Below, piece by piece: positions 15,369 through 53,518 of a DNA stretch of 64,000 nt. Numbering within the stretch: the first letter of the stretch is position 1; each line of letters starts with the position of its first letter. The position numbers and the translations under genes were made by a program. The notes below the pieces were generated by a model. It was not told the DNA's origin. It did not search any database and saw nothing but the letters and a program-made list of their open reading frames with translations. Source of the stretch: a bacterium (GTDB lineage Bacteria; Hinthialibacterota; Hinthialibacteria; Hinthialibacterales; Hinthialibacteraceae); contig CAXXMV010000008.1 in NCBI GenBank assembly GCA_963662285.2, positions 160,001 through 224,000 of the forward strand, read 5' to 3'.

Positions 15369-16154
15369 ATGAAAAAAATTTGTATTTTATTTGTTCTAGT
15401 CAGTTTTGCGGTTTTTTTTAATGGATTTACTGCATTTGGTGAATTGATTTTCGAAGACGATTTTATGGGTGAGAATGTTAGTGGGATTGATCCATTGAAT
15501 TGGCAGTGGTGGCTTAATTCTGATATTATTTTTGTCAGTGAAGCGGATGACGTCCCCGAATATGGACCTGGCGTCCTTACTATAGGAAATGGAACCGCAC
15601 ATATCGGTCTGGAAAATGAAGCAACCAAAAATCTTGTGGATTACCGCGTCACGGTCCTTTGGGTAGACAGATTAATCGACGGCGAAACGGATGATGCTGA
15701 TTTTCATATTGGCATTCGTTGCGCTGAATACGATGCGGAAACACAATTCCCTGAAAGTTGTTATGAAATAGAAGTGGATGGCGATGATAACGACTCGGCT
15801 AATGTAGTCCCGGAAGACGGGCCTACGTCATTCCACCTGTTTATTCGTGGAGGGGCCGCTGCGGTTGATAATAATGGAAATGCGTTAGCTCATGCGACCA
15901 GGGATATAGTGCCAAGACCGATTGCCAATGTCTGGTATTGGACATCCATCCAGATTCAAGGATTCGTCTTTCAAGGCAAGCAATGGAGATATAGCGCAGA
16001 GGAGCCGGATTGGCAATTGGAAGGTGAAGATTTAGACAAACAATTCCCCTCTGGCGGCATACGGGTAGGAGTATGGTCGGGAATGGCTGAAATTGCGTAT
16101 GTCAGAGTAGAAACAATTGAGCCTACCAGCGTTTCAGACTGGTCTTTGTATTAG
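15369..16154 (+). CDS. Secreted acidic beta-rich protein with C-terminal TSVSDWSLY motif
   Basis: RBS GGGGAG, signal peptide MKKICILF..TAFG, IFEDDF start of the mature part, SGGIRVGVW near the end (ConA-like fold inferred). Confidence 0.8.
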   Translation: MKKICILFVLVSFAVFFNGFTAFGELIFEDDFMGENVSGIDPLNWQWWLNSDIIFVSEADDVPEYGPGVLTIGNGTAHIGLENEATKNLVDYRVTVLWVDRLIDGETDDADFHIGIRCAEYDAETQFPESCYEIEVDGDDNDSANVVPEDGPTSFHLFIRGGAAAVDNNGNALAHATRDIVPRPIANVWYWTSIQIQGFVFQGKQWRYSAEEPDWQLEGEDLDKQFPSGGIRVGVWSGMAEIAYVRVETIEPTSVSDWSLY

Positions 16155-16182
16155 AACATTAGATTTATTCAGTATTTGAGCC

Positions 16183-16223
16183 AAAAAGGATGAGACAAAG
16201 CAAATGTTTGTCTCATCCTTTTT
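16183..16223. terminator. Bidirectional intrinsic terminator
   Basis: AAAAAGGATGAGACAAA-N7-TTTGTCTCATCCTTTTT between convergent genes. Confidence 0.8.
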
Positions 16224-16319
16224 CTATTCGCGTCATTATATCAAACAACCTTGATCCATTATAAAAACAATGTGCATCAATGCGCTTTCAATACACATAT
16301 ACTTTTGCTAACCGCTCTA

Positions 16320-17603
16320 TTAGTCTTTTTTTGATGCGTTCTGTTTTAAGATTGATAAAATCCGGTTGGCCAGCGGTTCTTGAGGATTGATCTTTAGCGC
16401 TGCTTTTAAATGTTTATGCGCTTCATTTACGTTATTTGATTCAAGATAGCATTGCGTCAAAAGAGAATGAATTACAGCTTTGTTCTCATGAAATTCCAGG
16501 CACTGTTTTAAGTATGTAATAGCTGTTTGAAAATCTCCACTGGACATATAAATTTGCGCTAGATAAAACTGCGCTTCGGGATGTGTTTGTTCCAACTCCA
16601 AAGTTCTTTTCATTTCCTCCGCCGCCAAATCACCTCTGCCAATTTCTAAATAGATTAATCCCATCTCGAAATGGGTTTCCGCCGTGTCCGGGTGATGACG
16701 CAGGTAACTGCGGTAAAAGTTGCGTTTAGCTTTCCCCATACGGTTGATAGTATCTAAACTTTGTTTCGCCAGTTTGACTTTATTACGTTCACGCTTAATG
16801 GAGTAGATCTTCACTAATTGAAATAATGCATGCTGATAAAACGGATCATCATCAATAATTTTTTCAAACAATTCTTGCGCATCATCAGTTTTGCGTTGTT
16901 TTATTAATAATTTGCCATACTCATAACGCGCCCGAATGTTTTTGGGATATTTCTCAAGGATTCTTTCATATAACGCAGTGGGCGTCTCTCCTTGCTGATG
17001 TTTGATTAGGGCTTGCAAAACCAAAGAATGTTCATGAGTTGTATTCTTAATTAAATTTGACGCTTGAGCGACATGGCCTTGGGTATGCAGGATAACAGCT
17101 TTGCGGTAGATGGCATCTATATTATCCGGTTCAATTTGTAATATAGTTTCCAGATGTTTTAGTGCAGGTGGATAGCGCTCTAAACGGTGATAGACGTTTA
17201 CTAATTCTTCCAGATATTCAATTGAATCCGGCGCAAGTTTTACTGCTTGGTTTAAGTTCGCAAGAGAACGTTCCGGATCGGATTTCTGACTTCCAAGTAT
17301 TTTACCTAAAAGGTAATATGCTTGATGCGCTGTAGGATTCAGTTGGATTATGTGATCCAGGATGCTGATAGATTGTGGATAATACCTATGTATATAATAA
17401 AACTGCGTCAACGCCATCAGGTGCACAATATTTTCCGGTTCATTTTTAATGGACTGAATAAGAATAGTTTCTTGTTTTTGTAATGCAGAATTTTCTATCG
17501 CAGGTTTAATATCAAAACTAAGGTCAGCGCACCATATTTCCAGTACAGTGCATGTAATGGTTAATAACAAAATGTGAGCAATGTAAATTAATTTCATTTT
17601 CAT
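16320..17603 (-). CDS. Tetratricopeptide repeat protein
   Basis: N-terminal hydrophobic signal and multiple TPRs (AYYLLGKI, ARYEYGKL, THFEMGLIY, AQFYLAQIY). ATGA overlap with the upstream gene. Confidence 0.88.
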   Translation of the reverse strand: MKMKLIYIAHILLLTITCTVLEIWCADLSFDIKPAIENSALQKQETILIQSIKNEPENIVHLMALTQFYYIHRYYPQSISILDHIIQLNPTAHQAYYLLGKILGSQKSDPERSLANLNQAVKLAPDSIEYLEELVNVYHRLERYPPALKHLETILQIEPDNIDAIYRKAVILHTQGHVAQASNLIKNTTHEHSLVLQALIKHQQGETPTALYERILEKYPKNIRARYEYGKLLIKQRKTDDAQELFEKIIDDDPFYQHALFQLVKIYSIKRERNKVKLAKQSLDTINRMGKAKRNFYRSYLRHHPDTAETHFEMGLIYLEIGRGDLAAEEMKRTLELEQTHPEAQFYLAQIYMSSGDFQTAITYLKQCLEFHENKAVIHSLLTQCYLESNNVNEAHKHLKAALKINPQEPLANRILSILKQNASKKD

Positions 17604-19249
17604 TCTTCTGTTATTGTGAGCCTTTGATTGGCTTTGACATTATGCAAGACGTTTTTTTTGCCGGATGTCCATTCTATTACAATTTCATCTACCGTATCTA
17701 ATTTTCCTAATCCTATATGAACATCAAAACTGCTTTGTGAAAGAAAACTGCAACCACTCTTTACGCCTTTCATAACTTTCAAATTCCCGTTTGTGCATTT
17801 GACAACAGTTCCAATAGCTGAACGATTGGAAGTAGTACCTCGCAATTGCAGGTGCAGCCAGTTGTTTTGATTGGCGCCGTCATTGCGCAAAATGGCGGCT
17901 TTCCCGTTCAGGGTATTTAGAACAATATCCAAATCTCCATCTTGGTCGATATCTCCTATAGCGCTGCCGCGCCCGACGCGTGGTAAATTAAAATCTTTAC
18001 CAAGGCTCTTCACTAAAGTGAATTTTCCGTTGTTGTTGACATACATTTGAGGAGATTGCGCGAAGGTTGTATCCAAATCAGGATGATCGGCTTCAGGATA
18101 AACATGCCCGTTGCAAAAAAACAAATCATCATCGCCATCATTATCAAAGTCTATCCAATGGGTTCCCCAACCTAGTGAAGTATATGTTGTATGACCAACT
18201 CCACTGGTGTAGGTTTCATTATCAAACATACCGTCTCCGACTCCATACAATACGGAAAAAGGTTCTTCAGAAAAATTTGTGACAGCTAAATCCCATTGGA
18301 AATCCCCGTTTGCATCACCATAATCGGCGCCCATAGAAGCCATTTCAGTACCGTCTTCGCTATAGGAAATACCGGCAATCAGTCCTGTTTCTTCAAATGT
18401 TCCATCACCATTATTGATATAGAGATAGCTGGGCATTGAATCATTGGACACATAAAGATCAGGGTAACGGTCATTGTTAATATCCGTCCATAAGCAAGTA
18501 AAACTATAAGCAGCAGGCGCATTCATTAAACCGGATGTTTGGGTAACGTTTTCGAATGTTCCATCCCTATTGTTATGGAACAAAGACATGCCTTGCGCCT
18601 TATATGCTCTTGGTCCGGGATATACATTAAATCCACGCCATTCAGCCGATTTTTCCGGTTCTCCAGGTTTTCGTTGAATCGACTCTAAATCCAGATAATC
18701 CGCCACCACCAAATCAACCCAGCCGTCCAAATCGTAATCTCCAAAGGCGACGCCCGTGCTTAATAAATTTGATTGACATCCCGCATCCTCTGTTATATCA
18801 GTGAATGTTCCATCGCCGTTGTTGCGGTAAAATTTGTTGGGGCCATAGTTTGTAACATAAAAATCCACATCGCCGTCATTATCATAATCAGCGGCAGCAC
18901 ATCCCATTCCCCAGCCGTTATCTCCAACGCCAGCGTCTTGAGTTATATCAGCAAAAGTGCCGTCATGGTTGTTGCGATATAGTTGATTGATCGCTTGAGG
19001 CTTGTTTTCAAAATGATTGCCATTCACGAAATAGATATCCAGCCAGCCGTCTCCATCAGCATCAAACAATGCCACGCTACCACCTTTGGCTTCGATGATG
19101 CATTTTTTATCGGTTGGATGCCCGCTGGAGTGAACAAAGTTGATTCCAGCGGATTGGGTAATATCCTTGAAAGTAACAGGAGCGGATGTCATCTGTATGC
19201 AAAGTAGAATATGGATCATTAGAATAACTATTAAAAATTGTTTAGTCAT
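17600..19249 (-). CDS. CRTAC1/ASPIC-UnbV family FG-GAP repeat protein
   Basis: Repeated DxDxDGxxD motifs, LYRNNHDGTF, SNRSAIG, SFLSQS, HIGLG, IEWTSG. Probable start is ATG 19249. Confidence 0.92.
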   Translation of the reverse strand: MTKQFLIVILMIHILLCIQMTSAPVTFKDITQSAGINFVHSSGHPTDKKCIIEAKGGSVALFDADGDGWLDIYFVNGNHFENKPQAINQLYRNNHDGTFADITQDAGVGDNGWGMGCAAADYDNDGDVDFYVTNYGPNKFYRNNGDGTFTDITEDAGCQSNLLSTGVAFGDYDLDGWVDLVVADYLDLESIQRKPGEPEKSAEWRGFNVYPGPRAYKAQGMSLFHNNRDGTFENVTQTSGLMNAPAAYSFTCLWTDINNDRYPDLYVSNDSMPSYLYINNGDGTFEETGLIAGISYSEDGTEMASMGADYGDANGDFQWDLAVTNFSEEPFSVLYGVGDGMFDNETYTSGVGHTTYTSLGWGTHWIDFDNDGDDDLFFCNGHVYPEADHPDLDTTFAQSPQMYVNNNGKFTLVKSLGKDFNLPRVGRGSAIGDIDQDGDLDIVLNTLNGKAAILRNDGANQNNWLHLQLRGTTSNRSAIGTVVKCTNGNLKVMKGVKSGCSFLSQSSFDVHIGLGKLDTVDEIVIEWTSGKKNVLHNVKANQRLTITEE

Positions 19250-19323
19250 AATAAATAGAAAAGTAAGCAACAGTTCAGCCACATGAAGTTATAAAATAAT
19301 AATTATGCTTTATACAAAGCGTT

Positions 19324-19452
19324 TAGGCTCTGATTCTCCCCCCAAGTTTGGGGGGAGTTAGGTGGGGGTTACGCTTCGACTAATCAACCCCCACCTAACC
19401 TCCCCCAGGCTTGGGGGAGGGATACGCGCTTCAATGGGCTAACCTATTACAA
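19324..19452. repeat. Composite palindromic element (family A, inward pair)
   Basis: Homologous to 3710-3828. The inner arms GTTAGGTGGGGGTT / AACCCCCACCTAAC pair perfectly over 14 bp. Confidence 0.85.
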
Positions 19453-19455
19453 AAT

Positions 19456-19483
19456 TAATAGGGGTGTAAAAACACCCCTATTA
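19456..19483 (-). terminator. Hairpin/terminator downstream of the CBM9-like gene
   Basis: TAATAGGGGTGT-AAAA-ACACCCCTATTA, a perfect 12-bp stem. Confidence 0.6.
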
Positions 19484-19533
19484 TGAATTGGATATCATCA
19501 ATGATATAGGGTAATCTGTCTTCATAAATCAAA

Positions 19534-20514
19534 CTAAAACAACGCCCATTCGCCTACATTTGTTCCACCGCCTAATGGATTATCGCTGGTAAAACGCATT
19601 TCACGGAAGAACTCAACACTCGATTCATTAGCTTGATGCCATCTTTGAAGATGGAATTGTTCTTCATCCCAATCAACCCAGTTGATATTGAAACCAATTG
19701 GTTCATCTGGTTCGAATGAAGGAAATACACCCCATGGGAGCATAATTTCCTGTACATAAGACGAATGTTGATCCCATGGTTTATCATCTAATTTTACTGC
19801 GCGTTGAATTTGCTCCAGAATAGCGATTTCATCACTATCTTCCGTATCTAATGCAGAGCGGAAAATAGCATAATCAAGCGGTAAACCATTCGCCATTATG
19901 TTTGGAAGATCAAATTCTTCTTTGATAAGCGCTTCATCAATGCTAAAAGCAGTTTGCAAGTCAAATTCTGAGCTTGTATCATCATTGATATTGACTGGTT
20001 CACGGTTATTATCGTTGTCAAACCACATTTCAATACCATCATTGGTAAAACCGGGTTGGTTGGCAGTATCCCGCTCCGGGTAGCTGCTTTCAAACCAACC
20101 AATCTGGCTGTCGGTTACAACATTCAACAGATAAAACCCTTCATCATTCCAACCGATATAAGTAATCGCAGAAAAATCATCTTCACCATCCGCTTCAAAG
20201 TTTGCTTCATTGCTTACTAACACTTTGGCTGGATCAAATTCAAAATGGTCGCCTGTTGTCAGTGCATCTGGATCATAAGCATTATCAGTTGCCTCATTTC
20301 CAAAGCCTTGACCTTCAGGTACATCAAGCATAACAGCAGGATCGCCAAATGCTTCCAAGGGCCAATCCGATGGATCACCGTCAATTGTGATGCTGATGTT
20401 AGCGCCAAATTTACGGCAATTGATAAAACGGTCTTGCGCAAAAACCATTTGAGTAAATAAAGAAACAGCCATGATTCCCGTTACAAAAATGACTAAACGT
20501 TTCGATCTACTCAT
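19534..20514 (-). CDS. Secreted CBM9/DOMON-like sugar-binding protein with C-terminal TNVGEWALF motif
   Basis: Signal peptide ..VFA/QD, ITIDGDPSDW, IGWNDEGFYL, DGIEMWFD, EIMLPW, IGFNINWVD. RBS AGGAGG. Confidence 0.8.
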   Translation of the reverse strand: MSRSKRLVIFVTGIMAVSLFTQMVFAQDRFINCRKFGANISITIDGDPSDWPLEAFGDPAVMLDVPEGQGFGNEATDNAYDPDALTTGDHFEFDPAKVLVSNEANFEADGEDDFSAITYIGWNDEGFYLLNVVTDSQIGWFESSYPERDTANQPGFTNDGIEMWFDNDNNREPVNINDDTSSEFDLQTAFSIDEALIKEEFDLPNIMANGLPLDYAIFRSALDTEDSDEIAILEQIQRAVKLDDKPWDQHSSYVQEIMLPWGVFPSFEPDEPIGFNINWVDWDEEQFHLQRWHQANESSVEFFREMRFTSDNPLGGGTNVGEWALF

Positions 20515-20858
20515 ATAACCCCTCCTTTTTTATAAAAATGTATTATTAAACTTAATTACACTAACATAAAATTATTGTACATGTCAACCTTTATTTTATT
20601 CTTTCGATAGACCGCTTTAACAGATGCAAATGCTTAAATTCTCCTGATTCATTTGCCTATTAAGGGTTGACTATATTTCGGTCAAACGTTGATTCTACAA
20701 CTTACTGTTTGAAGTATCCCTCAAGCGCTTGATTCTATTCGTAACCCGTTCAAACCTTTGATTCACATACGACTTGCCCTAAAATGTGGAACTTGCAATA
20801 TAATTGTTAAAATATTAATTCTTGTAATGATCCACTATTTTCTTAAGGAGAACGGGTA

Positions 20859-21845: not shown

Positions 21846-21868
21846 TAATAATTAGGTCGCATTCGCGA

Positions 21869-21904
21869 TTTGGTTGAAGCCAGAACAGATTGGCTTCAAC
21901 CAAA
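21869..21904 (+). other. Intercistronic stem-loop after the binding-protein gene
   Basis: TTTGGTTGAAGCCA-N8-TGGCTTCAACCAAA, a perfect 14-bp stem. An mRNA-stabilising role is inferred from its position. Confidence 0.55.
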
Positions 21905-21965
21905 ACCAAAGATGATAAAAACTCACAAATTTTTGACAATCGCTCTAGAGGAAGGTTAATTATCC

Positions 21966-23465: not shown

Positions 23466-23474
23466 GAGAATAAC

Positions 23475-23564
23475 ATTCTCCCACCAAGTTTGGGGGGTGT
23501 TAGAGGGGGGTTGCATTCCACCAATCAATCCCCTCCTAACCTCCCCCAGTTTTGGGGGAGGGAT
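23475..23564. repeat. Composite palindromic element (family A, inward pair) inside the ABC operon
   Basis: ATTCTCCCACCAAGTTTGGGGGGTGTTAGAGGGGGGTTG...CCCCTCCTAACCTCCCCCAGTTTTGGGGGAGG, homologous to the 3710 and 19324 copies. Confidence 0.85.
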
Positions 23565-23620
23565 CATACGATTCAGTTTACTGAGCAATTATTTCAAAAA
23601 GCAATGAATGGTGTTCAAAC

Positions 23621-25010: not shown

Positions 25011-25011
25011 T

Positions 25012-25060: not shown

Positions 25061-26451
25061 GGTTCTATAAAGAAATCTGTGGGTGAATGATAGCAAAAAT
25101 ACTTCGAATAGTAGAGGTATAAAAAAGACATCCGGTCTCTTATCCTGAAAGAATGAAATCAGCGAAAAATCATCAACCAGGAGGAAACCGGATGGATGTC
25201 ATTAGAATCCTCAATCGTGTTCATAAAATCAAGGGGTATGTATATGCTTCTAGCAAATTTGGTGAATGGAATGGTAAAACATCCATAGAGGTAAAAGTCC
25301 GTGCTCATGTCAAAAGCCGCCCGATATGTTCATGCTGCGGAGAAAAAGGATCAGGTTATGACAGATTAGATGCGCGCCGATTTGAGTTTATCCCGATATG
25401 GGGATTAACCGTATTCCTGATCTATGCCATGCGCCGCGTGAATTGTCACCGCTGTGGAGTGAAAGTTGAAAAGGTACCTTGGGCCGATGGTAAACATGAA
25501 TTAACGCATATCTATCAATGGTTCTTGGCGAGCTGGGCCAAGCGGATGAGTTGGAGCCAAGTGGCGGAAGCATTTCAAACAAGTTGGTACAATGTTTTTC
25601 ATTCGGTTGAACGGGCGGTAGAATGGGGCCGCCAGCATGTGAACCTGGAAGGAATCACCGCCATTGGAATCGATGAAATGCAATGGGGCGGCGGCCATCA
25701 GTATGTGACAGTGGTATATCAAATCAATGAGAATTGCAAACGGCTGCTGTGGATCGGGGAAAAAAGAAAGATCAAAACACTGTTGAAATTCTTCAGATGG
25801 TTCGGGGAAGAGCGTTCAAAAAAATTGGAATTTGTGTGCAGTGATATGTGGAAAGCTTATCTCAAAGTCATTCGCAAAAAAGCCAAAAGCGCGCTGAATG
25901 TATTGGATCGGTTTCACATCATGGCTCATATGAACAAAGCCATAGATCAAGTCCGCGCTGGAGAATCCCGTGAATTGAAGGCCAAGGGATTAGAACCGGT
26001 ATTAAAAGGAAGTCGCTGGTGGTTTCTGAAACGCCCGGATAATTTGACAGTCAAGCAGGTCGATAAATTAGCCAACGTGGTTCGATATAATCTGCGCACG
26101 GTGAGAAGTTATCTTCTCAAAGAGGAATTTCAATTTTTCTGGGAATATAAATCAGCATGGTGGGCTGGACGCTTCATGGATCAGTGGTGTACTAAAACCA
26201 TGCGCTCGCGAATCGAACCAATGAAGAAAGTGGCCAAGATGCTGCGCAACCATCGCGAACTGATTTTGAACTGGTTTCGGGCGAAAAAGGAGTTTTCTTC
26301 TGGAGTGGTGGAAGGCTTAAACAACAAGGCCAAAGTGACTACCAAAATGGCGTACGGTTTTCGAACCTACAAAGCGCTGGAAATCGCCTTATATCATACA
26401 CTTGGCGATTTACCAGAACCAAATTTCACCCACAGATTTTTTTGAAGAGGC
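25061..26451 (+). mobile_element. ISL3 family insertion sequence, 1391 bp
   Basis: Terminal inverted repeats GGTTCTATAAAGAAATCTGTGGGTGAA and GCCTCTTCAAAAAAATCTGTGGGTGAA (22/27). 8-bp TSD TATCTTTT at 25053-25060 and 26452-26459. Confidence 0.95.
25192..26445 (+). CDS. ISL3 family transposase
   Basis: Zinc finger (CSCCG, CHRCG), IGIDEM, CSDMWKAY, LDRFH, SGVVEGLNNK, AYGFR. AGGAGG precedes ATG 25192. Confidence 0.95.
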   Translation: MDVIRILNRVHKIKGYVYASSKFGEWNGKTSIEVKVRAHVKSRPICSCCGEKGSGYDRLDARRFEFIPIWGLTVFLIYAMRRVNCHRCGVKVEKVPWADGKHELTHIYQWFLASWAKRMSWSQVAEAFQTSWYNVFHSVERAVEWGRQHVNLEGITAIGIDEMQWGGGHQYVTVVYQINENCKRLLWIGEKRKIKTLLKFFRWFGEERSKKLEFVCSDMWKAYLKVIRKKAKSALNVLDRFHIMAHMNKAIDQVRAGESRELKAKGLEPVLKGSRWWFLKRPDNLTVKQVDKLANVVRYNLRTVRSYLLKEEFQFFWEYKSAWWAGRFMDQWCTKTMRSRIEPMKKVAKMLRNHRELILNWFRAKKEFSSGVVEGLNNKAKVTTKMAYGFRTYKALEIALYHTLGDLPEPNFTHRFF

Positions 26452-27282: not shown

Positions 27283-30200
27283 TTACTGCGGGATCAGGGG
27301 TAAACGAATCAAATCATCTGGGTTGAAATTCTCCGTCTGTTTTGGATAATCAGCGGGATTAAAATCCACCGCCTGATAGCCGGGAACGAGAATGCGTACG
27401 TTAGAGACTTCCGGGTGAATGGATACGGGAACAAAATTGTAAATATCTCTTTCAGGATTGCTGCGGATACGGGCCTGGAATGAAACTGGTTCTGAAAAAC
27501 CGGTCAATTCGAGAAGTGCGAGTCCATCCAAGGTTTGGTTATCGGGCGCAACCAGCATCACCCCATATTTATCCGGTGCATACAGATTGAGCATGAGTTG
27601 CGGTTGTTCACCCGGGCGAATAGTGAGCCGTTGCGGCAGCGTTTCCATCATTTTAGAGAAGCAATAGGCGGTAACTCGAATTTCCAATTCTCCTTCTTGC
27701 ATACCATAGACTTTATAGTATCCCTCTTCGATTTGGGTAGAAGGTAATATCTGGGGATTATATTCCTGGCTTTCGGCAACGACATTAATCCAACTGCTGA
27801 CTGCCGGTTTTTCTTCTAAAAAGAGACGAAGGTATATGGCCATATCGTCTTTTTTCAAGTAGACCTTCACTATTATTGGTTGCATCGTCTCCCCGGAATT
27901 GAAGGGGGGAACCGTAATCTCAAATTCTTTGGCTTGATACCCGTCCTTGATCGCCGCTAAAGTGAACGAGCCGGATTCCATGGGGAGCAGAGTGAATGAG
28001 CCATCCGATTTTGTCTGCGTTTCAAGATTCCTTACTCCTTGGGGATTAGTTTCGTTGATTTTCAAGCGGGGTTCAATTTTCGCTTCGGCGATGGGTTCAT
28101 TGGTCTCTTCATCGAGAACCACGCCTTGAATTTCCAACGATGCGATGTGAAGGTCGACTGTGTATTCCGATTGATCTTCGGTAACCAGCACTTTCGCTGA
28201 ATACTCACAATTTCCTTCATAGAGGGGTTGATCGGGCTGAGTGGTTTCGCTGGACTCGGTGGTAACCATGATGGTGTATTCTCCCGCTTCGAGCGATGGG
28301 AATGAGTAGGCGCCTTGTCGGTCAGATACGGCTTTAAGTGAGTAGCCGATTTGGTTTTGACTTGTCCTTCGCATGGATAGAGCCACTTGGGCGTTGGGAG
28401 AGATTTGTCCCCGTTTGTAGACCGTTCCACGAATGACCGCACCCTCGCCGCCGCCGAAATCGCAACGCGTAATCTTGCCTTCTTCAACAAGAACGGTTTT
28501 GTATTGCTGGCTTTTGTAATCGTCATTGGGTCCGTAATTAAGTACCATGTACGAAGCGGGCGCAAGATGTTCGAAACGGTACTCTCCCTCTTCATCGCTG
28601 AGGGTTTTATATTTGAATTGATTTTCCGGCCAGTTTTGAATATTGAGGGCTACATTGGCTTCTTTCTTCCCAGCCAATCCATAAGTAGTTCCAGCGATGC
28701 CGCCTCCCAATGTCATACGAATCGTGAAAGGAGATTGCGCGATCATGGATGTATCAATCGCAAATAACGTAGGCGCGAAATCGTTGTGTTGAACGACCAG
28801 AGTGTCTCCTTGAGATGGAAAATTATCTATTTGAAATTGTCCTTCACCATCGCTGATTGCATCTTGTGGGTAATTCGGCTTGGAAAAAGGATGCCCATAG
28901 GAATTTTTTGGGATATCGGGTACATTGGATAGAATACTCAAGATTGCGTTGGCGATAGGTTGTCCTTGTGGATCAACGATCACGCCGGAAATTTCAATCC
29001 CTTTCTCCATGCGGATGATGATTGTATCAACTTTTTGCCCTTCACGCACGCTGATGGTTTCGCTATCGGCTTCCGGGAATCCTTTCATTTTGGCGTGGAA
29101 TTGGTAATCCATCGGATCGAGTTTGCTGAACGTGAACGCACCATCGTCATCGGTGGTTGTTGCTCTGTGGGTTTCATGATATGGTCTGCCGCTATACATT
29201 CTGACTGGATAAACCTGTGCGCCAGCCAGGGGTTGGTCGTTGTCGTCCAACACGATCCCGGTGATTTGACCACCTTTTTTCATAGCGAGGGTGTAATACG
29301 ATTCTCCAAACGGACGCTTCTGATTGGTTTGGAGATATTCCTCTTTACCAGAAATGTGGAATTGTATTTGATCTCCCTTTTTCACGAATCCCTTAATAAG
29401 AAATTCTCCATTAGCGTCGGTTTTTGCATACATCGAATCATTATGGTAAGATTCCGTATCGCTCAAGGGAAAGGCGCTAACTGACGCGCCCTCTAACGGT
29501 TCCGATGTTTCCTTGTCGATCACTTTTCCTTTAATCTCATAGGTCTCACCATTATTCATAATGAAATCAACGCCGGTTCGGTGTTCTCCCGCTTTTAATT
29601 CCAGGGTTTGAGACTGGATAGGATTAACCGGGTAATGATGGCTGCGGGTCAGGGAGATTCGATAGGAACCGGGCGCCAGCGTATCGAGGGAATAGTCGCC
29701 GTTTTGATCCGGTTCAACGCGGAGGTTAGTGGGATACTTCCATCCGGGGATATCCTGCAATTCGGCGTCGACTTCCTTATCGGGAACGGTATTACCTCCG
29801 CTATCCAGCACCTTGCCGGAAACAGAGGCATACGTTTGCAAAGCGATTTCCACGCGAATGGGCTGGGTGGGCATTCCAGGCGTGAATGCCTTGCTGAATC
29901 CCCGTCCTTCGGTGGGATGGGAAGCTTCCGCATACAAAGTGCGCTTGGGAAGGTTAGTATTTGTCGATGTTCCATTGCGATTGGTCGTGCAATTGCCGAT
30001 AGTATCCCATTCACTTTCATCGCCGGTTATTTGGATTTCAGCTTTTTCAACAGGTTGCCCCATAGGGTTTACGACGTAAAATTCCGCCGCTGATCCCGGC
30101 TGCATCTCAATGAGATATTCATTATCCCTGGAGCCTTTTGGAACATCTATTTGGAGTAAGGGGCTGTTTGGGATTTTATAAGCGAGGAATTGAACATATC

Positions 30201-30915
30201 CTTCCGCACTGGCCATCAAACTGTAATTTCCTTGCGTTAAACGCGTGATTTTAAATGAACCGTCTTCTTTGGAAATCGCTTTTTCTGTATGTTGGGGCGG
30301 CTTCTTTTTAAAGGCGCTGTGACACATGGCGGTGATTTCCGCTCCCTCAATGGGAGATTTGGTCTGCGCGTTGATAACTTTTCCTTGGATGTAATGGGGG
30401 GCTGGGGGGTGAGCAAAATGTTGAGCCAGCGTTGGTTGGCTTTGCGTCAAGGAAAACTCTTCGCCTAATGAAAGATATCCCTCCGGGGGTAAGGAATGGA
30501 TAAAGCCCTTAACTGGTCCGTCCAGATGGATTGTATAATAACCTTTTTCATCGACGCCGACCTTTTTTTCATTTTTCGATGCGGAGGAGTGTTTGTATTT
30601 TTGTTCAACAAAAACCGTAATAATGCTTCCAGGCAGGGCTTTTCCTTCTTCGGCGGTTACATATCCCGCGATCCAATATTCTTCCTGGGTAGCGGCTTGA
30701 GTTATAGGAGATGCAGAGGTTGAAAGAGTGGGTTCCACGGGAATTGGCTTGGGCGCTATGGTTGCAGCTGATTTAGGTGGTTCGGGAGGAGGAGTGTTAA
30801 GGACGGCCTGGTTTTGGGGAGATTCGAGCGTTTTTCCCCCCATGAATGTAACGCTAATCATGAAGACTAGAAAGAGTACAAAAAATGCGCCGCCTATTAT
30901 ATATCCTCGATTCAT
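27283..30915 (-). CDS. Large membrane-anchored carboxypeptidase-regulatory-like repeat protein
   Basis: N-terminal TM helix and Pro-rich linker, then about 10 repeats of the I.G.V.D..G.P+.GA.V...TD.DG.F pattern. RBS AAGGGGAG. Confidence 0.88.
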   Translation of the reverse strand: MNRGYIIGGAFFVLFLVFMISVTFMGGKTLESPQNQAVLNTPPPEPPKSAATIAPKPIPVEPTLSTSASPITQAATQEEYWIAGYVTAEEGKALPGSIITVFVEQKYKHSSASKNEKKVGVDEKGYYTIHLDGPVKGFIHSLPPEGYLSLGEEFSLTQSQPTLAQHFAHPPAPHYIQGKVINAQTKSPIEGAEITAMCHSAFKKKPPQHTEKAISKEDGSFKITRLTQGNYSLMASAEGYVQFLAYKIPNSPLLQIDVPKGSRDNEYLIEMQPGSAAEFYVVNPMGQPVEKAEIQITGDESEWDTIGNCTTNRNGTSTNTNLPKRTLYAEASHPTEGRGFSKAFTPGMPTQPIRVEIALQTYASVSGKVLDSGGNTVPDKEVDAELQDIPGWKYPTNLRVEPDQNGDYSLDTLAPGSYRISLTRSHHYPVNPIQSQTLELKAGEHRTGVDFIMNNGETYEIKGKVIDKETSEPLEGASVSAFPLSDTESYHNDSMYAKTDANGEFLIKGFVKKGDQIQFHISGKEEYLQTNQKRPFGESYYTLAMKKGGQITGIVLDDNDQPLAGAQVYPVRMYSGRPYHETHRATTTDDDGAFTFSKLDPMDYQFHAKMKGFPEADSETISVREGQKVDTIIIRMEKGIEISGVIVDPQGQPIANAILSILSNVPDIPKNSYGHPFSKPNYPQDAISDGEGQFQIDNFPSQGDTLVVQHNDFAPTLFAIDTSMIAQSPFTIRMTLGGGIAGTTYGLAGKKEANVALNIQNWPENQFKYKTLSDEEGEYRFEHLAPASYMVLNYGPNDDYKSQQYKTVLVEEGKITRCDFGGGEGAVIRGTVYKRGQISPNAQVALSMRRTSQNQIGYSLKAVSDRQGAYSFPSLEAGEYTIMVTTESSETTQPDQPLYEGNCEYSAKVLVTEDQSEYTVDLHIASLEIQGVVLDEETNEPIAEAKIEPRLKINETNPQGVRNLETQTKSDGSFTLLPMESGSFTLAAIKDGYQAKEFEITVPPFNSGETMQPIIVKVYLKKDDMAIYLRLFLEEKPAVSSWINVVAESQEYNPQILPSTQIEEGYYKVYGMQEGELEIRVTAYCFSKMMETLPQRLTIRPGEQPQLMLNLYAPDKYGVMLVAPDNQTLDGLALLELTGFSEPVSFQARIRSNPERDIYNFVPVSIHPEVSNVRILVPGYQAVDFNPADYPKQTENFNPDDLIRLPLIPQ

Positions 30916-31924: not shown

Positions 31925-33442
31925 TTATTGATGCAAATCCCAATGTTCAATAGACGAAACATTCTCAACAAGGTTCACTTTTACTGTAACTTTTTTTGTG
32001 CCGGGACCAGAAAAACCGAAGGGATCACCATAATCCCAGGCTTCATAATAAGGGCTTCTTGTGGTGGTATCGAAGCGCCAATTTTCAGGGCGTTCATTTT
32101 GATCGCTTACACTTTCTCCAGAAACACCTATGAAAACACCGTTTAACCACACTGCAGTCGCATCGTCACCTGCAATTTTTACAATAAGTTCTGTAATTGC
32201 GTTATAATTTTGAACATCAAAAATAGAACGTGTATAAATGGTTAAACTAGATTCATCCACTTTAATATCTAATTTTCCATTTTCGCCGTTTGATCCATAT
32301 CCGATAGGAAAACCAAGGTCAGTATTGTGGTTCCATTGACTCTCGTCAAAGTTACGTTGTTTCCAACCGGGTATTTCTTCACCCCTGCTATCTTTCCTGT
32401 AGACTGTTTTCCAAAAAAACTTTGTATCAGGAATCCAAGTTCCTAATTCACCATTTGTGTACATAACTCCATTATTATCGGATAATTCGACGGAACCTGC
32501 CAAATCGTCGCTCTTGAGATTTTCGTTATATATACCTGTTGCAAGTACATTATCTTTCCTATAGAGAGGGACTATGATATCCGCTTTGGTAAACGACAAC
32601 ATCCAACTGTAAATATCGGAATCTATCTTGTTATAAACTCTTTCCCATATATCATGGCCTAATTCTGGATAAACAGTAAACTCAACATTTCCTCCTAAGT
32701 TCCGAAGATTTATAACAGTTGATTCTCCTTTTGAAAATGGAAGGGTGTAATCACGTTTACCATGAAACGCCCAAATGGGTATGTCAACCAGGTTCTCAAG
32801 CGCAGCCGGTGGAGCAAGAGAAAGATCAGAACTAAGAGACCTTACATCGCTCGTTCCACAAATAGGAACAGCGGCGGCGAAAAGTTCGGGATGTACACTG
32901 GCGTAACTCCACGTACCGCATCCTCCCATACTATTTCCTGTTAAGTAAATTCGTTTACGATCTACGGCATAATTGGCGAGAACATCATCTAGCACTTGAT
33001 CCAGATATAGTTCAAACCACCATTCGCCTGGAGGGCAATGCGGAGAGACAAGAATGAATGTAAATCCCTCTTCTCCAAAGAGTTCTTTCATCTTTGCCGG
33101 ATCTTCTACAATTCCAGAAGGTTTATCTTTAGAATTTCTTAAGAAAACTATATCATCCGGTCTATTGGGTGCGAATCCATGAAGAGATAATAATAATGGC
33201 CATTTATCTTCTGTTTGGCCGTAGTCTTTCGGCAGATAGAGTAAATAATCATAATGGAATCCCTTGGATTGGACAACTTGTTTACCAGGTTCCTGCGCTT
33301 TGCTTTCAGAAAGAGTTAGAAATAAAAAACTAAACAAAAAAACGATTATCCATGCCCACTTGATTTGAGTGATTTGAAATAAAAAATTAACAAATGATCG
33401 AAAATATTTATTTAGATATTCTGCTGCCGTAAATAAACTCAT
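31925..33442 (-). CDS. Secreted alpha/beta-hydrolase (peptidase/esterase) with a C-terminal beta domain and SSIEHWDLHQ motif
   Basis: YLLYLP, PLLLSLHG, GNSMGG nucleophile, AFHGKRD, GHDIW, then DDATAVWLNG. AAGGAG lies 8 nt before ATG 33442. Confidence 0.82.
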   Translation of the reverse strand: MSLFTAAEYLNKYFRSFVNFLFQITQIKWAWIIVFLFSFLFLTLSESKAQEPGKQVVQSKGFHYDYLLYLPKDYGQTEDKWPLLLSLHGFAPNRPDDIVFLRNSKDKPSGIVEDPAKMKELFGEEGFTFILVSPHCPPGEWWFELYLDQVLDDVLANYAVDRKRIYLTGNSMGGCGTWSYASVHPELFAAAVPICGTSDVRSLSSDLSLAPPAALENLVDIPIWAFHGKRDYTLPFSKGESTVINLRNLGGNVEFTVYPELGHDIWERVYNKIDSDIYSWMLSFTKADIIVPLYRKDNVLATGIYNENLKSDDLAGSVELSDNNGVMYTNGELGTWIPDTKFFWKTVYRKDSRGEEIPGWKQRNFDESQWNHNTDLGFPIGYGSNGENGKLDIKVDESSLTIYTRSIFDVQNYNAITELIVKIAGDDATAVWLNGVFIGVSGESVSDQNERPENWRFDTTTRSPYYEAWDYGDPFGFSGPGTKKVTVKVNLVENVSSIEHWDLHQ

Positions 33443-37965: not shown

Positions 37966-38433
37966 TCAACAGGCAACCTGGGCAGCCTTTTTAGAAATAT
38001 GAAGTTCACCACATGTTGTTTTAACTTCGGTTTTATATGTTGATAAAGAGAAACCAAGAGTTACGGCCTGGTTTAAGTATTGATTCAAACTCACACCTTG
38101 TTTCTCAGCAGCCTCAACCAATGATTGATGCATTTCCGGTGTGGTTCTAAATAGAATTTTTCCATTATAATTGGTTTCCAGCGTAGTTTCTTCAACTGGT
38201 TCTGGTATAACCAAGCCCTTTTCAAGCCAGAATTCAAACAAACTTTTCCTGGCTTCCCCTAATTCCAAAAGCGCTTCCTCTTGCGTGTCTCCAACCGCGA
38301 CGCATGAAGACTTGCCAAGAGTGGGATTGTAGGCTTCAAATCCCCCGCCCTCTTCAATCGGTATAGGCTCAATGATTGTTTTATAATTCAAAGACAAAAA
38401 ATACTCTAAATCCTTTTTTCGTTGCTTAGCCAT
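37966..38433 (-). CDS. hicB: HicB family antitoxin with C-terminal RHH-type domain
   Basis: LEYFLSLNY..IEP...EGGGF..C.A.GDT.EEA..L....WLE.G..IPEP, then YNGKILFR..PE.H..L...A...GVSLNQY. Confidence 0.88.
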   Translation of the reverse strand: MAKQRKKDLEYFLSLNYKTIIEPIPIEEGGGFEAYNPTLGKSSCVAVGDTQEEALLELGEARKSLFEFWLEKGLVIPEPVEETTLETNYNGKILFRTTPEMHQSLVEAAEKQGVSLNQYLNQAVTLGFSLSTYKTEVKTTCGELHISKKAAQVAC

Positions 38434-38728
38434 TTTCCTTCACCTGCAAATATTTAATGAACTCTAGAACAGTCTTATAGTATCTCTTCTTAACCTTGTT
38501 TTTGTGAACGGGTATTGAATACGTGTTGTTTCTTATATCCAAACCAGATATAGATTCTTCATGTTGGAAATTATCCCATTCAGGATGATATATTTTATAA
38601 TGAGAACCACTCGCTGGATTAGCTAATTTCAGACCGCTTTCTTCAACAATCGATTTAAAACTGCTAAAAGGAACTTCATTTGGAGAATTATTCAGCCACT
38701 TTTCCAGTCTCTTTTCACGCTTATTCAT
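38426..38728 (-). CDS. hicA: HicA-like toxin
   Basis: MNKREKRLEK..N.P..V.F, SGSHYK, SIPVHKNKVK..Y. Overlaps the hicB start. Confidence 0.75.
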   Translation of the reverse strand: MNKREKRLEKWLNNSPNEVPFSSFKSIVEESGLKLANPASGSHYKIYHPEWDNFQHEESISGLDIRNNTYSIPVHKNKVKKRYYKTVLEFIKYLQVKENG

Positions 38729-44923: not shown

Positions 44924-45066
44924 TAGGATTATGATTTAGATGCATCAATTTTTTGATACCCCCCCTCACCCTAGCCCTTCACCCGGTAGGAGAGGGGACT
45001 TGGTAAAACGAACATAATAAACGAACTTTTTTTACAATTGATCTAATAATAAAAGGATAATCTCGA

Positions 45067-46350: not shown

Positions 46351-46546
46351 TCAACTTGTAGATCACTTTATTTGATGATTCGAGCTGGATACTTATATTT
46401 TGCAGGATATAGATTTTCTAATGCAATTATTATGATATAATACATATTGATAATAAATCTGAGCATGATCATTACATAAATTAGTGATTCTGGATATTTC
46501 AAAGGAGAAACCAAAATTCTTATTAGTAGAATGCTGGTCATAGAAA

Positions 46547-47740: not shown

Positions 47741-47974
47741 TGACGAAGCGGTAAAAAGTCAAAACTTGTTTTTATAATCATAATAATTGGTAGATTTGTA
47801 AGTGTTTTGTATACAAGAGAATGTGTGAGTTTCGTCTTTCATCCACTTTTTGTCGACTCTTCGGGTAATAGGCGTATATAGAAAGTATTTAATACGCGTT
47901 GGAAACTAAATCGAATTATCCAACCACTTCATCTTGATCGTAAATTTATACCGGACAGCCATTAAAATTCAACC

Positions 47975-49852: not shown

Positions 49853-49868
49853 ATTTTCAGAGTGTTTT

Positions 49869-50022
49869 TTGTCTGAATCAGGATAGCCAGGATGAAAGGA
49901 TGCTCATGATGGTTCATTCTATAATCAATAAGTTCATAATCAGAATAACCTACAGGAAACAAAATGTTTTTTATGTCAAATCCTGAGCATCCGGAAAATC
50001 CTGAGTATCCGGATTCAGACAA
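49869..50022. repeat. TGTCTGAATC-bounded inverted-repeat element
   Basis: TTGTCTGAATC...GATTCAGACAA. Shares CAGGATGAAAGGATGCTCATGATG and ATCCTGAGTATCC with the 37647 copy and has a longer core. Confidence 0.8.
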
Positions 50023-50164
50023 GAAGAATCGCAAATATCCCATTTAAGGATATAATGTAAATCATCCCATAATTCCTGTTTTTTCTCTCTCTTCTTCCCA
50101 AAATCCATTGAATCCTGTATTGTCATATCAAGAAATATTCATTTTATAAGAGAGGGTATGGAAT

Positions 50165-51322
50165 ATGAAAATCAGCAAATCATTTAGCATGGCAAGCCTT
50201 CTTCTGGTGGTTGCGTTTTTCTCATCATCCGCAATGGCGCAGGAAGACTGGATTGAATTATTCAATGGAAAAGACCTTAATGGATGGAGTTACGTCCACG
50301 ATGTAGATTTCGATGTTCATGACGGCAACCTGCGCCTTATCAAAGGCATGGGCTGGCTGCGCAGCGATCAACTGTATGATGATTTCATCATGGAATTCGA
50401 ATGCAAAGCGCTGGTTGAAAATTATGACAGCGGTTTCTTCTTCCGCTCCAGCATAACCGGCAAACCCTGGCCTGACGCTGGCTTCCAAGTCAATCTCAAA
50501 ACCGATGCCATGGCTTACCTGGTTCGCGGTTATCGCGCAATGCTGAAAACTGAGTTGGAAACGATTCCCGTAGGAGAGTGGATGAAATTCCACCTGGAAT
50601 CCAAAGGCGAGGAAGCACGATTGGAATTAAACGGTAAAGAGATTTGGGAAGCGGATTTCATTGAACCGGAAATCGGCCTTATCGGCATCCAGGCCGAAAA
50701 CCGCGCCTTTGAATTCAGAAACATGCGCCTGCAAGAGATTGGCTATACCAATCTGTTAGTCGGCCAAGGCAATGACCTGAAGCATCTAACCGTACAAGCA
50801 GGTGAAAAAGACGCCTGGTCGCTCAAAGACGGCGTTTTGACCTGCAAAGGCAAGCAAGGCGGCTGGATCAGAACCAAGTCTGATGATTACGGCGACTTTA
50901 TCCTTAAACTTGATTTCATGGTTCCCAAAGAAGGCAACAGCGGCGTCTATATCCGCACTCCGAAAGAAGGCGACGGCGCCTACACGGGCATGGAAATTCA
51001 GATACTTGATGATGACGCCAAACATTGGGGCGAATTGCAGGCCTGGCAAAAAACCGGCTCTATTTATCATGAAGTGGCGCCGTCAGTCCGCGCGACCAAA
51101 CAAGCCGGCGATTGGCAGAGCATGATGATCAAAGCTGAGAAAAGCCAAATTACGATTTACGTCAATGGCGTACAGATAGTTGACGCTGATCTTGATGAAT
51201 ATGTTAAATCAAGCACTGATAGCAAAGCCTTGAAAGATCGCCCCCGAACGGGATATATCGGCTTTCAGAATTACGACGGCAACATCCAATACCGTAATGT
51301 TCGCGTGAAACGACTGAAATAA
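50165..51322 (+). CDS. Secreted tandem DUF1080 (3-keto-disaccharide hydrolase-like) protein
   Basis: Signal peptide, LFNGKDLNGW, DSGFFFR, GNSGVYIR, EIQILDD, TGSIY, GYIGFQ..YRN. Confidence 0.88.
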   Translation: MKISKSFSMASLLLVVAFFSSSAMAQEDWIELFNGKDLNGWSYVHDVDFDVHDGNLRLIKGMGWLRSDQLYDDFIMEFECKALVENYDSGFFFRSSITGKPWPDAGFQVNLKTDAMAYLVRGYRAMLKTELETIPVGEWMKFHLESKGEEARLELNGKEIWEADFIEPEIGLIGIQAENRAFEFRNMRLQEIGYTNLLVGQGNDLKHLTVQAGEKDAWSLKDGVLTCKGKQGGWIRTKSDDYGDFILKLDFMVPKEGNSGVYIRTPKEGDGAYTGMEIQILDDDAKHWGELQAWQKTGSIYHEVAPSVRATKQAGDWQSMMIKAEKSQITIYVNGVQIVDADLDEYVKSSTDSKALKDRPRTGYIGFQNYDGNIQYRNVRVKRLK

Positions 51323-51344
51323 GTTGTATCGAGATATAACTATT

Positions 51345-51378
51345 AACGGGGTGGATCATAGTGATCCACCCCGTTTTG
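51345..51378 (+). terminator. Intrinsic terminator
   Basis: AACGGGGTGGATCA-TAG-TGATCCACCCCGTT followed by TT. Confidence 0.75.
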
Positions 51379-51416
51379 GTTGTGCTTATAATGACTTTTG
51401 TCCTCTGCTAAGGTAA

Positions 51417-51577
51417 TCGTTATCAACCCTCTCCTAACCTCTCCCAATCTTGGGAGAGGAATGTAATTCCAAGGTTTTTTATATAACTAAGTAAAACAAT
51501 ATAAGATAGTTATCTTTCAAAATCCCTCTCCCTCAATTTGTGGGAGAATTCAAGAGGGGGTTGTTTTCAAACCCTTA
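51417..51577. repeat. About 160-bp REPIN/MITE-like element (family A, outward pair)
   Basis: The reverse complement aligns with 35999-36163. Confidence 0.85.
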
Positions 51578-51588
51578 TTTCATGCAAG

Positions 51589-51840
51589 TCATTCCGTAGC
51601 TTCGTTTTGTGGATTGGATATTGATTTGGCGATTTTCACCGCCTCATCAGCATCTTTCTCAAGAACTAGAAAACGTGAATATCCTTCGGCTGGTTCAGAA
51701 GCTTGTTGGAACGATAAGGCATGAATTTTCTGAATAAAATAATCAATGCCAGCATCATCAAAAGCATTAGCGATCAAATTTTCATGAACGTAATCCTCGG
51801 CGAAGCCAATAGGTATCATGTTTTCCTGCTCGCGATTCAT
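51589..51840 (-). CDS. Small DUF2007-like protein
   Basis: AGGAG precedes ATG 51840; ENLIANAFDDAGIDYFI, FLVLEKDADEAVKI. Confidence 0.7.
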   Translation of the reverse strand: MNREQENMIPIGFAEDYVHENLIANAFDDAGIDYFIQKIHALSFQQASEPAEGYSRFLVLEKDADEAVKIAKSISNPQNEATE

Positions 51841-51868
51841 TATTGATTCTCCTAAAGTTTGAACAACT

Positions 51869-53518
51869 CTAATAAATAGACCAATCACCAACAGCTGATA
51901 TTCCAGGATCATTGGGGTCAAGGATCACGCCGCTGCCCCAGCGCACCCAATCAACCGTCATCGTACCGGAACTAGGACCAGGCCATCCGATATCCACGCG
52001 GCCATCACGATCCACCTCAGGCCATCCAACCCATCCGGTACCGTGGAAGGTTACGGCTGGTTGGCTGAAATCTCTGTTAACATAGACGTCATATTCACAC
52101 TGCTCACCAAGGGCGGCGGTATTGTTGGGATCAATCAGCGAATCCGAGCGCGATTCTTCATTGAAACGGCATACCACCGTAATGGTATTGAATTGCGTCA
52201 TATCTTGATCAAAAACTGGCTCATCGCCATTCAGGTTCCAACCGCCTAAGCGATCCTGGGCGAAACTGGGCTGCCATGATTCTCCACCGGGATGATATTC
52301 ATCCGTCATCAAGCAAGCGATAGTGCAATGCGGTCCACTAGCATCGGCGCCGCCTTCTTCATCTATGCGGAAATTGGCTTCGACGGTATATGGAACTACC
52401 CAGGCCGTTTCATGCACCATATAAAAATTGGCGTCTTCCTTATCATCAGTAATAGCCACTGTTCCATCAGTATTCTGAGTTAAGACGCCTTGCGCATTGG
52501 AACCATAGGGTTCCCATCCTTCGGCGACATAATCGGTTAATTCACTGGTTACGTCCCAATTACCCATATCAATCTGAGCCAATTGGGCGTCAAAGCCTTC
52601 GGCTACGCCAGAGCGGTATAGCCCGGTAGCGTCATTTCTACCGCCGCGCCACATCATGAATTTGCCTTTGCCCAGATAAACCACTGAAGCGTAATAGTTG
52701 CGGTTTTCGTTCCATGATCCAGCCTCACCAAGGCCGCCTACATCGTTGATCGGATCCCATTGCTCCCAGTTAAATCCATCCGATGAAACCAGGTATTGGT
52801 TTTCGGTATTGGATGCGAAAGCCCACATGCGGTAGTCATTCTGACCAATGGAAATCACACAGGTCGGATGCATAGCGGGTGGAAATGGAACAATATCAAA
52901 GTCATAAAATTCATAGCCATCGGTTGAGGAAGCCATCATTATTCCGCTGCCAGAATTGTAAAACATTCGAAATGGTTCTAATTGGCCTGGCATATATAAT
53001 ACCGCATGACCATCAGGATAAGTTCCAAGATCGGAATCTTCAGCAGATATGGACCTTTGATCGTTTTCAAAATTAATCCCATCAACGCTCTCAGCTACCC
53101 GCACTTGCCAAATCTCTTCTGGATAGCAATAATAATAAATCCGGAATGGTTTATCCCATGACGGCTCATACAGTACAACCGGACGTCCGCCGATCATCTC
53201 ACCTTCAGTGTTCAGTCCATTAACTTTCACCTGATTAGTCCAAGTGATGCCATCCGCCGATTGGGCATAGGCTAATCCGTTAATGCTGGCGAAATCAAAC
53301 CAGATGCGGAAGCGGGATTCTTCAGGCCAAGTCTCATTATAAAGTACATAAGGCATATATGACCGGTCACCCACTTCATTCAACTCTAATGGATTAACAT
53401 CAGCACGGTCAGTCCATTCTATAGACCATTTCTCTTGAGAATTTGCGGTCAAGGGGATAAAAAGCAACCCTAGAACACAAATACAACAACATTGTTGCAC
53501 CCAACTTTTCATGTTCAT
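51869..53518 (-). CDS. Secreted beta-propeller glycoside-hydrolase-like protein with C-terminal SAVGDWSIY motif
   Basis: Signal peptide ..ANS/QE, repeated P.V.Y...FR+++ and S.DG..W/F blades, second beta domain. GGAGG precedes ATG 53518. Confidence 0.78.
   Translation of the reverse strand: MNMKSWVQQCCCICVLGLLFIPLTANSQEKWSIEWTDRADVNPLELNEVGDRSYMPYVLYNETWPEESRFRIWFDFASINGLAYAQSADGITWTNQVKVNGLNTEGEMIGGRPVVLYEPSWDKPFRIYYYCYPEEIWQVRVAESVDGINFENDQRSISAEDSDLGTYPDGHAVLYMPGQLEPFRMFYNSGSGIMMASSTDGYEFYDFDIVPFPPAMHPTCVISIGQNDYRMWAFASNTENQYLVSSDGFNWEQWDPINDVGGLGEAGSWNENRNYYASVVYLGKGKFMMWRGGRNDATGLYRSGVAEGFDAQLAQIDMGNWDVTSELTDYVAEGWEPYGSNAQGVLTQNTDGTVAITDDKEDANFYMVHETAWVVPYTVEANFRIDEEGGADASGPHCTIACLMTDEYHPGGESWQPSFAQDRLGGWNLNGDEPVFDQDMTQFNTITVVCRFNEESRSDSLIDPNNTAALGEQCEYDVYVNRDFSQPAVTFHGTGWVGWPEVDRDGRVDIGWPGPSSGTMTVDWVRWGSGVILDPNDPGISAVGDWSIY

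Follow-up and report, generated by a model that had tools for sequence, protein, structure and literature searches.

A nine-residue C-terminal tail on unrelated exported proteins of Hinthialibacterota and Sumerlaeota: a probable sorting signal

The window analysed here is the 64-kb stretch C8:160001-224000 of genome G000 (7.29 Mb, 8 contigs, 92.5% complete), a member of the phylum OLB16/Hinthialibacterota. Four of its genes encode signal-peptide proteins whose bodies are unrelated and whose C-terminal ends are alike, each closing on a tail of about nine residues that includes a tryptophan. The initial annotation had taken this tail for a lineage-specific tag for surface display, secretion or docking, and all four endings that it gave are present in the sequence. 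The tagged genes, their tails and a prepilin gene beside one of them are as follows, in window positions:

15369..16154 (alternative start 15354), plus strand: tagged signal-peptide protein, 261 amino acids (aa), no Pfam or NCBIfam match
16125..16151, plus strand: its tail TSVSDWSLY, the highest-scoring tag of the genome (sequence, tag matrix)
19534..20514, minus strand: tagged CBM9_1-like protein, 326 aa (profile search)
19537..19563, minus strand: its tail TNVGEWALF (sequence)
31925..33442 (open reading frame to 33487), minus strand: tagged alpha/beta-hydrolase with a further C-terminal domain (Peptidase_S9/Abhydrolase_2)
31928..31957, minus strand: its tail SSIEHWDLHQ, with one trailing residue (sequence, tag matrix)
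51869..53518 (open reading frame to 53560), minus strand: tagged protein, 549 aa (predicted structure)
51872..51898, minus strand: its tail SAVGDWSIY, the Trp invariant in 16 aligned orthologues
53750..54355, minus strand: orphan prepilin of GspG-like type, on the strand of the tagged 51869 open reading frame and 190 bp upstream of it

Three of the four tagged genes are on the minus strand, a point left unstated in the initial annotation. Its remark that the other exported proteins of the window lack the tail agrees with our scan, which found no further tagged open reading frame there. As a lead only, the look-alikes of the 15369..16154 protein in the Atlas are lectin/3-keto-disaccharide-hydrolase-like clusters from Poribacteria and Eiseniibacteriota. 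All 32 homologues found for the 19534..20514 protein end in W-x-[LIMV]-[YFHQ]. The 31925..33442 hydrolase has a polyhydroxybutyrate-depolymerase-like match below cut-off. The model of the 51869..53518 protein resembles the propeller-plus-sandwich enzymes of GH43 and GH32 at a template-modelling score of about 0.35, and its tail residues 533-549 lie outside the fold with a predicted local distance difference test (pLDDT) below 50.

Across the genome, a regular expression near the consensus first proposed matches 75 of 8,171 open reading frames of at least 100 aa within two residues of the end, and gives 2 internal matches. An iterated position-specific scoring matrix finds 160 open reading frames at a score of at least 12, against 0 per null scan on truncated sequences; with Trp, Phe or Tyr permitted at the anchor it finds 186 of 5,155 gene-like open reading frames, against a null of 0.1. 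The motif thus stands at the C-terminal end far above the null, and its consensus is wider than the one first proposed: [TVS]-[SAPDNG]-[VI]-x-[DNE]-W-[SEM]-[LIM]-[YFH], followed by 0-2 trailing residues. Counted over the 186 tails from the anchor at position 0 (W169/F13/Y4), the residues are T118/V30/S26 at -5, V135/I42 at -3, D65/N44/E26/G14 at -1, L112/I41 at +2 and Y108/F38/H25 at +3, and 38 tails carry one or two residues beyond the motif. The Pro/Gly linker described ahead of the tail holds in part: upstream, Pro is raised 1.9x, Thr 1.4x and Gly 1.2x, and Lys and Arg are depleted.

Signal peptides were called by a hydropathy heuristic in place of SignalP. A signal peptide without a later helix is found in 156 of 171 tagged genes against 1,476 of 4,984 others (odds ratio 24.7, p=4e-62), which bears out the enrichment expected of an export tag. 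Ten of the 186 tagged proteins have no such call; several of these resemble frameshifted fragments or genes called from a late start, and one is Tat-like by eye. Tagged proteins are strongly acidic (165 of 174, against 263 of 1,476 untagged signal-peptide proteins), and none of the 174 has a lipobox. A transmembrane-like stretch within the last 40 aa and a basic end (at least two Lys/Arg in the last 5 aa) each occur in 1 of 186, and Cys in the last 12 aa in none. The bodies fall into 88 sequence clusters, 68 of them singletons, and paralogues of tagged proteins occur both with and without the tail. Pfam matched 8 of 18 tagged proteins from outside the window, with LTD, CotH, beta-helix, cohesin and PD40 among the matches. 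The tail is on none of 23 sulfatase-like proteins and none of 63 Tat proteins called by regular expression. There are also large untagged acidic exported families with other repeated C-terminal domains (G000:C2:1571032-1590589 and C8:1017932-1054799); in the former, one paralogue bears the tail in place of the repeated domain.

The distribution outside this genome was followed in 35 genomes of OLB16/Hinthialibacterota and 75 of Sumerlaeota. A stop-anchored DNA pattern matches in 34 of the 35, with 17-76 matches per genome in the host's own family and 0-5 for reversed-pattern controls. The one OLB16 genome lacking a match, G001, has three variant tails in a single fetched locus. In Sumerlaeota the pattern matches in 55 of 75 genomes, with at least 4 matches in 25 of them (counted by eye), and some low-count clades, thinly sampled, have single variant tails. 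Among the matches listed from named genomes, 47 of 80 loci are true ends of open reading frames of at least 100 aa, and those 47 are from records labelled Sumerlaeota, OLB16, 'Omnitrophota' or plain 'bacterium'. The similar endings that the initial annotation placed in Sumerlaeota/OLB16-type genomes are borne out: the tail occurs across OLB16 and in part of Sumerlaeota.

The homologues of the 51869..53518 protein show what else can stand at the tail's position. Of 44 examined, the tail closes 15, and 27 have at the same boundary a domain of about 55 aa that ends in [FY][YF]R; by eye, each group gains one more. Three members of the second group are named Verrucomicrobia. The [FY][YF]R domain, found in verrucomicrobial-type homologues (P0017-P0044, P0147, P0148), has no Pfam or NCBIfam match and is probably another undescribed sorting domain. 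A rough classifier was applied to the ends of 149 more distant homologues and left 121 as 'other'; of the rest, 7 have the tail by regular expression, 14 have a type IX secretion system (T9SS) C-terminal domain (CTD; 13 over the TIGR04183 cut-off), 1 has a PEP-CTERM signal and 3 a WG-x-x-K tail. In 5 of 8 anchorable CTD homologues, [TSDV]-[AGD]-V lies within 4-6 residues of the last propeller strand that they share. Further short endings occupy the tail position: the WG-x-x-K tails themselves (P0169, P0188, P0284), which we take to come from Poribacteria-like phyla, the search giving no taxon; PVTVSHVEFE at the end of a G101 protein (L216:10078-12282); and, in P0209, a PTAINLQTF motif with a helix and a basic tail behind it.

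None of the sorting systems tested accounts for the tail. An NCBIfam search with 70 tails gave three unrelated single matches and no tail model, and Pfam and NCBIfam found no CTERM model on the four window proteins, so the check for an existing model proposed in the initial annotation came back empty. The literature searched, which did not extend to subscription journals or to the supplements of bioRxiv preprints, yielded no account of the tail. The portion of the Hinthialibacter description available to us infers polysaccharide degradation and mentions neither 'secretion' nor 'C-terminal' (PMC9324843). The tripartite CTERM signals (LPXTG/sortase, PEP-CTERM/exosortase, GlyGly-CTERM/rhombosortase, MYXO-CTERM/myxosortase) likewise join dozens of unrelated signal-peptide proteins that share their end alone and swap it in homologues, and GlyGly- and MYXO-CTERM cargo leaves by way of a type II secretion system (T2SS) after processing. 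Of the CTERM criteria in the part of bioRxiv 10.1101/2023.06.07.544157 that lists them, numbers 6-8 describe the tail as well: it has many unrelated signal-peptide carriers and is exchangeable among homologues. Unlike these signals, it has no transmembrane helix, basic cluster or Cys, which upholds the earlier statement that LPXTG, PEP-CTERM and GlyGly-CTERM do not fit. Sortase and exosortase models (PF04203, PF09721) each matched 0 of 5 genomes with matching controls; rhombosortase and myxosortase were not searched for.

The type A CTD of the T9SS (TIGR04183/PF18962) resembles the tail in being a many-to-one C-terminal signal on proteins processed by signal peptidase I (SPI) and in standing at the same position in homologues; it is a folded domain of 40-80 residues, whereas the tail has 9 residues and is disordered in the model. 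TIGR04183 has no match in G000, G101 or G035 and one sub-cut-off match in G003, against 54 in the Algibacter control G110. SprA/Sov (TIGR04189) is likewise lacking from G000, G101 and G035, with short sub-cut-off pieces in G003 and a match in the control. The initial annotation was right to set the T9SS aside as far as the translocon and a folded CTD are concerned; the conserved PorU-like C25 peptidases and a cleavage-site likeness, both described below, escaped it.

Neither an equal frequency of the tail in cytoplasmic proteins, nor a lack of further examples, nor an existing family that explains it was found. Because of the signal-peptide enrichment, the unrelated bodies, the modular gain and loss, the exchange with sorting domains, the lack of an NCBIfam or Pfam model and the OLB16/Sumerlaeota range, the proposal of a lineage-specific sorting or export tag is well supported, with surface display, secretion and docking as its candidate roles. 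Very probably the tail is a C-terminal sorting signal carried by Sec-exported (SPI) proteins that are bound for the cell surface or exterior. Its behaviour is that of a CTERM or T9SS signal, and it belongs to neither class.

As to mechanism, three features of G000 come into question:

C8:485880-491375: C25-A, gingipain-family peptidase, 1831 aa, distant PorU relative
C2:500515-504318: C25-B, gingipain-family peptidase, 1267 aa, distant PorU relative
C7:11.8-23.8 kb: conserved, vertically inherited T2SS cluster

We tentatively favour a model in which periplasmic C25 peptidases cleave and transpeptidate the tail and the T2SS exports the cargo, over recognition of an uncut tail, docking and periplasmic turnover; it is possible, short of likely, and conjectural at every step. 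After Sec export, the hydrophobic-aromatic end V/I-x-x-W-x-L-Y would be recognised in the periplasm. The C25 pair would cut just before it, at about T/x-V, and transfer the new C-terminus to an amine-bearing anchor, for which a glycolipid, lipopolysaccharide or lipid is a candidate. LpxC is present in 5 of 5 genomes. The vertically inherited T2SS would then move the folded cargo across the outer membrane, as it does for GlyGly-CTERM and MYXO-CTERM cargo.

The C25 family is present in 35 of 35 OLB16 and 73 of 75 Sumerlaeota genomes, mostly as 1,800-aa and 1,250-1,600-aa proteins, in 0 of 14 control genomes, and in 2 of 5 unrelated metagenome-assembled genomes as single short copies. The closest PDB relative of both G000 proteins is PorU 6ZA2 (E 3e-10, 1e-9), and the PorU model NF033707 aligns over 540-790 of its positions. 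They have CARDB domains, the His/Cys dyad is kept in 31 of 32 full-length copies, and none of the 32 bears a tail of its own. Among the Sumerlaeota copies, several carry signal anchors or lipoboxes, a sign that the C25 peptidases may face the periplasm. The cleavage sites of PorU, such as GT/SIADV and DD/SVEDI (part of PMC4560394, its Table 2), read X/[GSA][VLI], in register with the T/x-[VI]-x-[DNE] of the tag, a loose likeness to the first half of the tail; a second source, again in the part available, has +2 Ile conserved and +1 tolerant (PMC11969387). Tests of this likeness gave mixed results: a post hoc class test of 35 Algibacter CTD linkers gave 12 of 35 against 9 of 70 (p=0.018), a linker test on 20 other CTD proteins gave p=0.03, and the planned test, given below, was not significant. 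A complex prediction of C25-B residues 295-1260 with a 32-residue tail alignment scored 0.00 with controls that did not fold, and it weighs on neither side. A third C25 class of about 770-800 aa occurs in many Sumerlaeota (G035, G037, G090, G092, G101 and others) and is absent from G000; in three genomes it and the 1,800-aa copy are about 22 kb apart.

A number of observations weigh against C25 cleavage. First, the peptidases are remote from PorU: five orthologues score 136-248 on NF033707, far below its cut-off of 420, and at the column of PorU Arg722, the conserved Arg that follows the Cys by 32 residues, the two G000 proteins have Gly, with an Arg one position past it in C25-B. Second, the likeness of sites is loose. 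In the planned test, the 35 Algibacter linkers (43 loci fetched) scored a median of 2.2 against 1.7 (p=0.29), with tags at 9.3; [SAG][VI]x[DEN] fits just 61 of 186 tags, 24 have Pro at the putative P1', and the -5 residue varies freely among T, S, A, V and G in orthologues. The likeness may mark merely a linker, since PorU cleavage has been called sequence-independent (in the part of PMC4804311 available to us). Third, the listed gene neighbourhoods of 20 C25 loci hold housekeeping genes and show neither shared machinery nor linkage to cargo genes, the PorV family is found in 0 of 75 Sumerlaeota genomes, and one Sumerlaeota clade, on few sequences and a quick version of the C25 tree, seemingly has B-type copies only together with a divergent tail. 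Finally, the search for co-occurring machinery called for in the initial annotation did turn up C25 and one T2SS that go with the lineage, but both are universal in the two phyla and no tag-free relative was found, so there is no profile contrast. G001, tried as a tag-free control, was ruled out by its three variant tails and its A-like and B-like C25 pieces.

The main alternative, somewhat less likely, is that the tail stays uncut and is read directly by the T2SS (tip pilins, a GspC-like clamp or secretin N-domains) or by orphan GspG-like pilins, as the C-terminal strand of PilC/PilY1 binds PilK, while the C25 pair does something else. There is precedent in part of the literature for a terminal strand of about 10 residues docking a protein on a filament tip (PMC13533445), and another part of the T2SS may read the tail directly (PMC12369372, in part). 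A donor strand of the PilC/PilY1 type likewise takes up some 10 residues at the very C-terminus of a protein that Sec exports, and G000 has type IV filament systems; that relation is one-to-one, whereas the tail's is about 190-to-one. The hydrophobic positions of the tag are its most conserved, which would suit a binding pocket. G000 has eight secretins and three T2SS clusters. The GspK of the conserved cluster has an orthologue in 35 of 35 OLB16 genomes, a cluster of this type is at all 16 Sumerlaeota loci inspected (as listed, those clusters lack gspG, and a canonical GspG is located elsewhere), and GspK (L232, G000:C7:16811-18097; L316-L365) carries an insertion of 25-45 residues before its terminal strand in 46 of 46 copies viewed. 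But conserved GspK has its own terminal strand in cis, modelled at a pLDDT of about 90, and on the tag matrix, where tags score 9.3, the terminal strands of pilins come out at -5 for GspK and about -2 for GspG. The cis strand and low scores rule out the tail as an obligate GspK donor strand, and the C-terminus of GspG, similar by eye, proved unlike the tail on scoring.

The orphan pilins speak for direct reading. There are 103 orphan GspG-like prepilins in G000, nearly identical at the N-terminus but divergent in their globular domains (median 27% identity); smaller similar sets occur in G001, G035, G048 and G101. One is adjacent to 25 of 171 tagged genes against 66 of 1,373 other signal-peptide genes (odds ratio 3.4, p=6e-6) and 12 of 254 acidic untagged signal-peptide genes. 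By permutation, 26 of the 103 abut a tagged gene against a mean of 8 and a maximum of 16, and in other genomes a pilin lies within 2.5 kb of 8 of 47 tags. On the other side, 146 of the 171 tagged genes lack a neighbouring pilin, and tagged and pilin genes alike may simply gather in accessory regions. A further candidate partner is in a cluster resembling a type IVa pilus tip (L233, G000:C1:1042692-1054334), which includes a 2129-aa PilX-like protein without its last strand; after it comes a 437-aa protein that Pfam does not match and whose PilY1-like end is conserved. The giant PilX has a match in 35 of 35 genomes, and the adjacent donor-like gene occurs in families f1-f3 only, with none identified in f6. 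This dedicated neighbour disfavours the tail as donor for the giant PilX. Unlike the PilC/PilY1-type case, G000 has a separate PilY1-like donor as well as a GspK complete in cis.

Less probable still is that the tail is a non-covalent docking peptide for a surface scaffold (S-layer or outer-membrane protein) or for a periplasmic receptor or chaperone. The tail is free and disordered, yet conserved, as a docking peptide might be, and G000 has cohesin-bearing proteins and many outer-membrane barrels. However, in homologues this position is taken by secretion or sorting domains more commonly than by docking modules, and no universal scaffold was identified, the whole proteome not having been screened. 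A PorV-like barrel was considered as universal reader: G000 has two barrels of the family, both below cut-off (60 and 45 against 90 bits), and it was rejected, the query having no match in OLB16 families f2, f3 and f4 and the family being absent from Sumerlaeota. Among the cohesin and barrel genes of G000 are a 958-aa cohesin-bearing protein that adjoins a weakly PorV-like barrel (L235, G000:C3:327247-331306), two cohesin proteins in front of PilM/PilQ-like genes (L234, G000:C8:427705-431653) and six tandem paralogues of about 690 aa with outer-membrane-barrel-type ends (G000:C6:1100745-1113460). Very improbable is a role unrelated to export, in which recognition of the tail by PDZ or TPR proteases would lead to the retention or turnover of periplasmic proteins: a free aromatic C-terminus is of the type bound by PDZ domains (PMC12369372, in part), and a few tagged proteins resemble periplasmic binding proteins by eye, but the periplasmic sulfatase-like and Tat classes are untagged apart from the one Tat-like case, and homologues bear outer-membrane sorting domains in the tail's place.

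The remainder of the window contains other features. A Bat-type operon at 697-12024 has BatD, TPR and SH3 proteins confirmed by Pfam, along with genes that we take, from their appearance, to encode MoxR, DUF58 and vWA proteins; a GroEL-like gene (12136-13749) comes after it. By eye, 25153-26445 looks like a transposase and 37966-38728 like a possible HicAB-like gene pair. Two large untagged proteins with carboxypeptidase-regulatory-like repeats are encoded at 27283-30915 and 59484-62405, the latter preceded by a sigma/anti-sigma-looking pair (58266-59461).

A helix-free, domain-free, many-to-one sorting signal fits no class that was tested. The tail labels about 3.6% of the proteome, and its nine residues predict which proteins of two uncultured phyla are on the surface or extracellular. 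The leading mechanisms touch on T2SS substrate selection and on PorU-type transpeptidation without a T9SS. It is quite possible, if not yet probable, that OLB16 and Sumerlaeota have an undescribed export-and-anchoring pathway made up of a T9SS-free PorU-type transpeptidase pair, a helix-free signal of 9 residues and a T2SS equipped with a very large set of accessory pilins. If so, uncultured phyla would share a wider family of short tails (WG-x-x-K, PV-x-V-S, with the [FY][YF]R domain as their folded counterpart), of which this tail is the shortest and whose readers are C25 sortases or the T2SS. Sortase chemistry would then exist beyond Bacteroidota, or else the T2SS would have a signal that is linear and transplantable.

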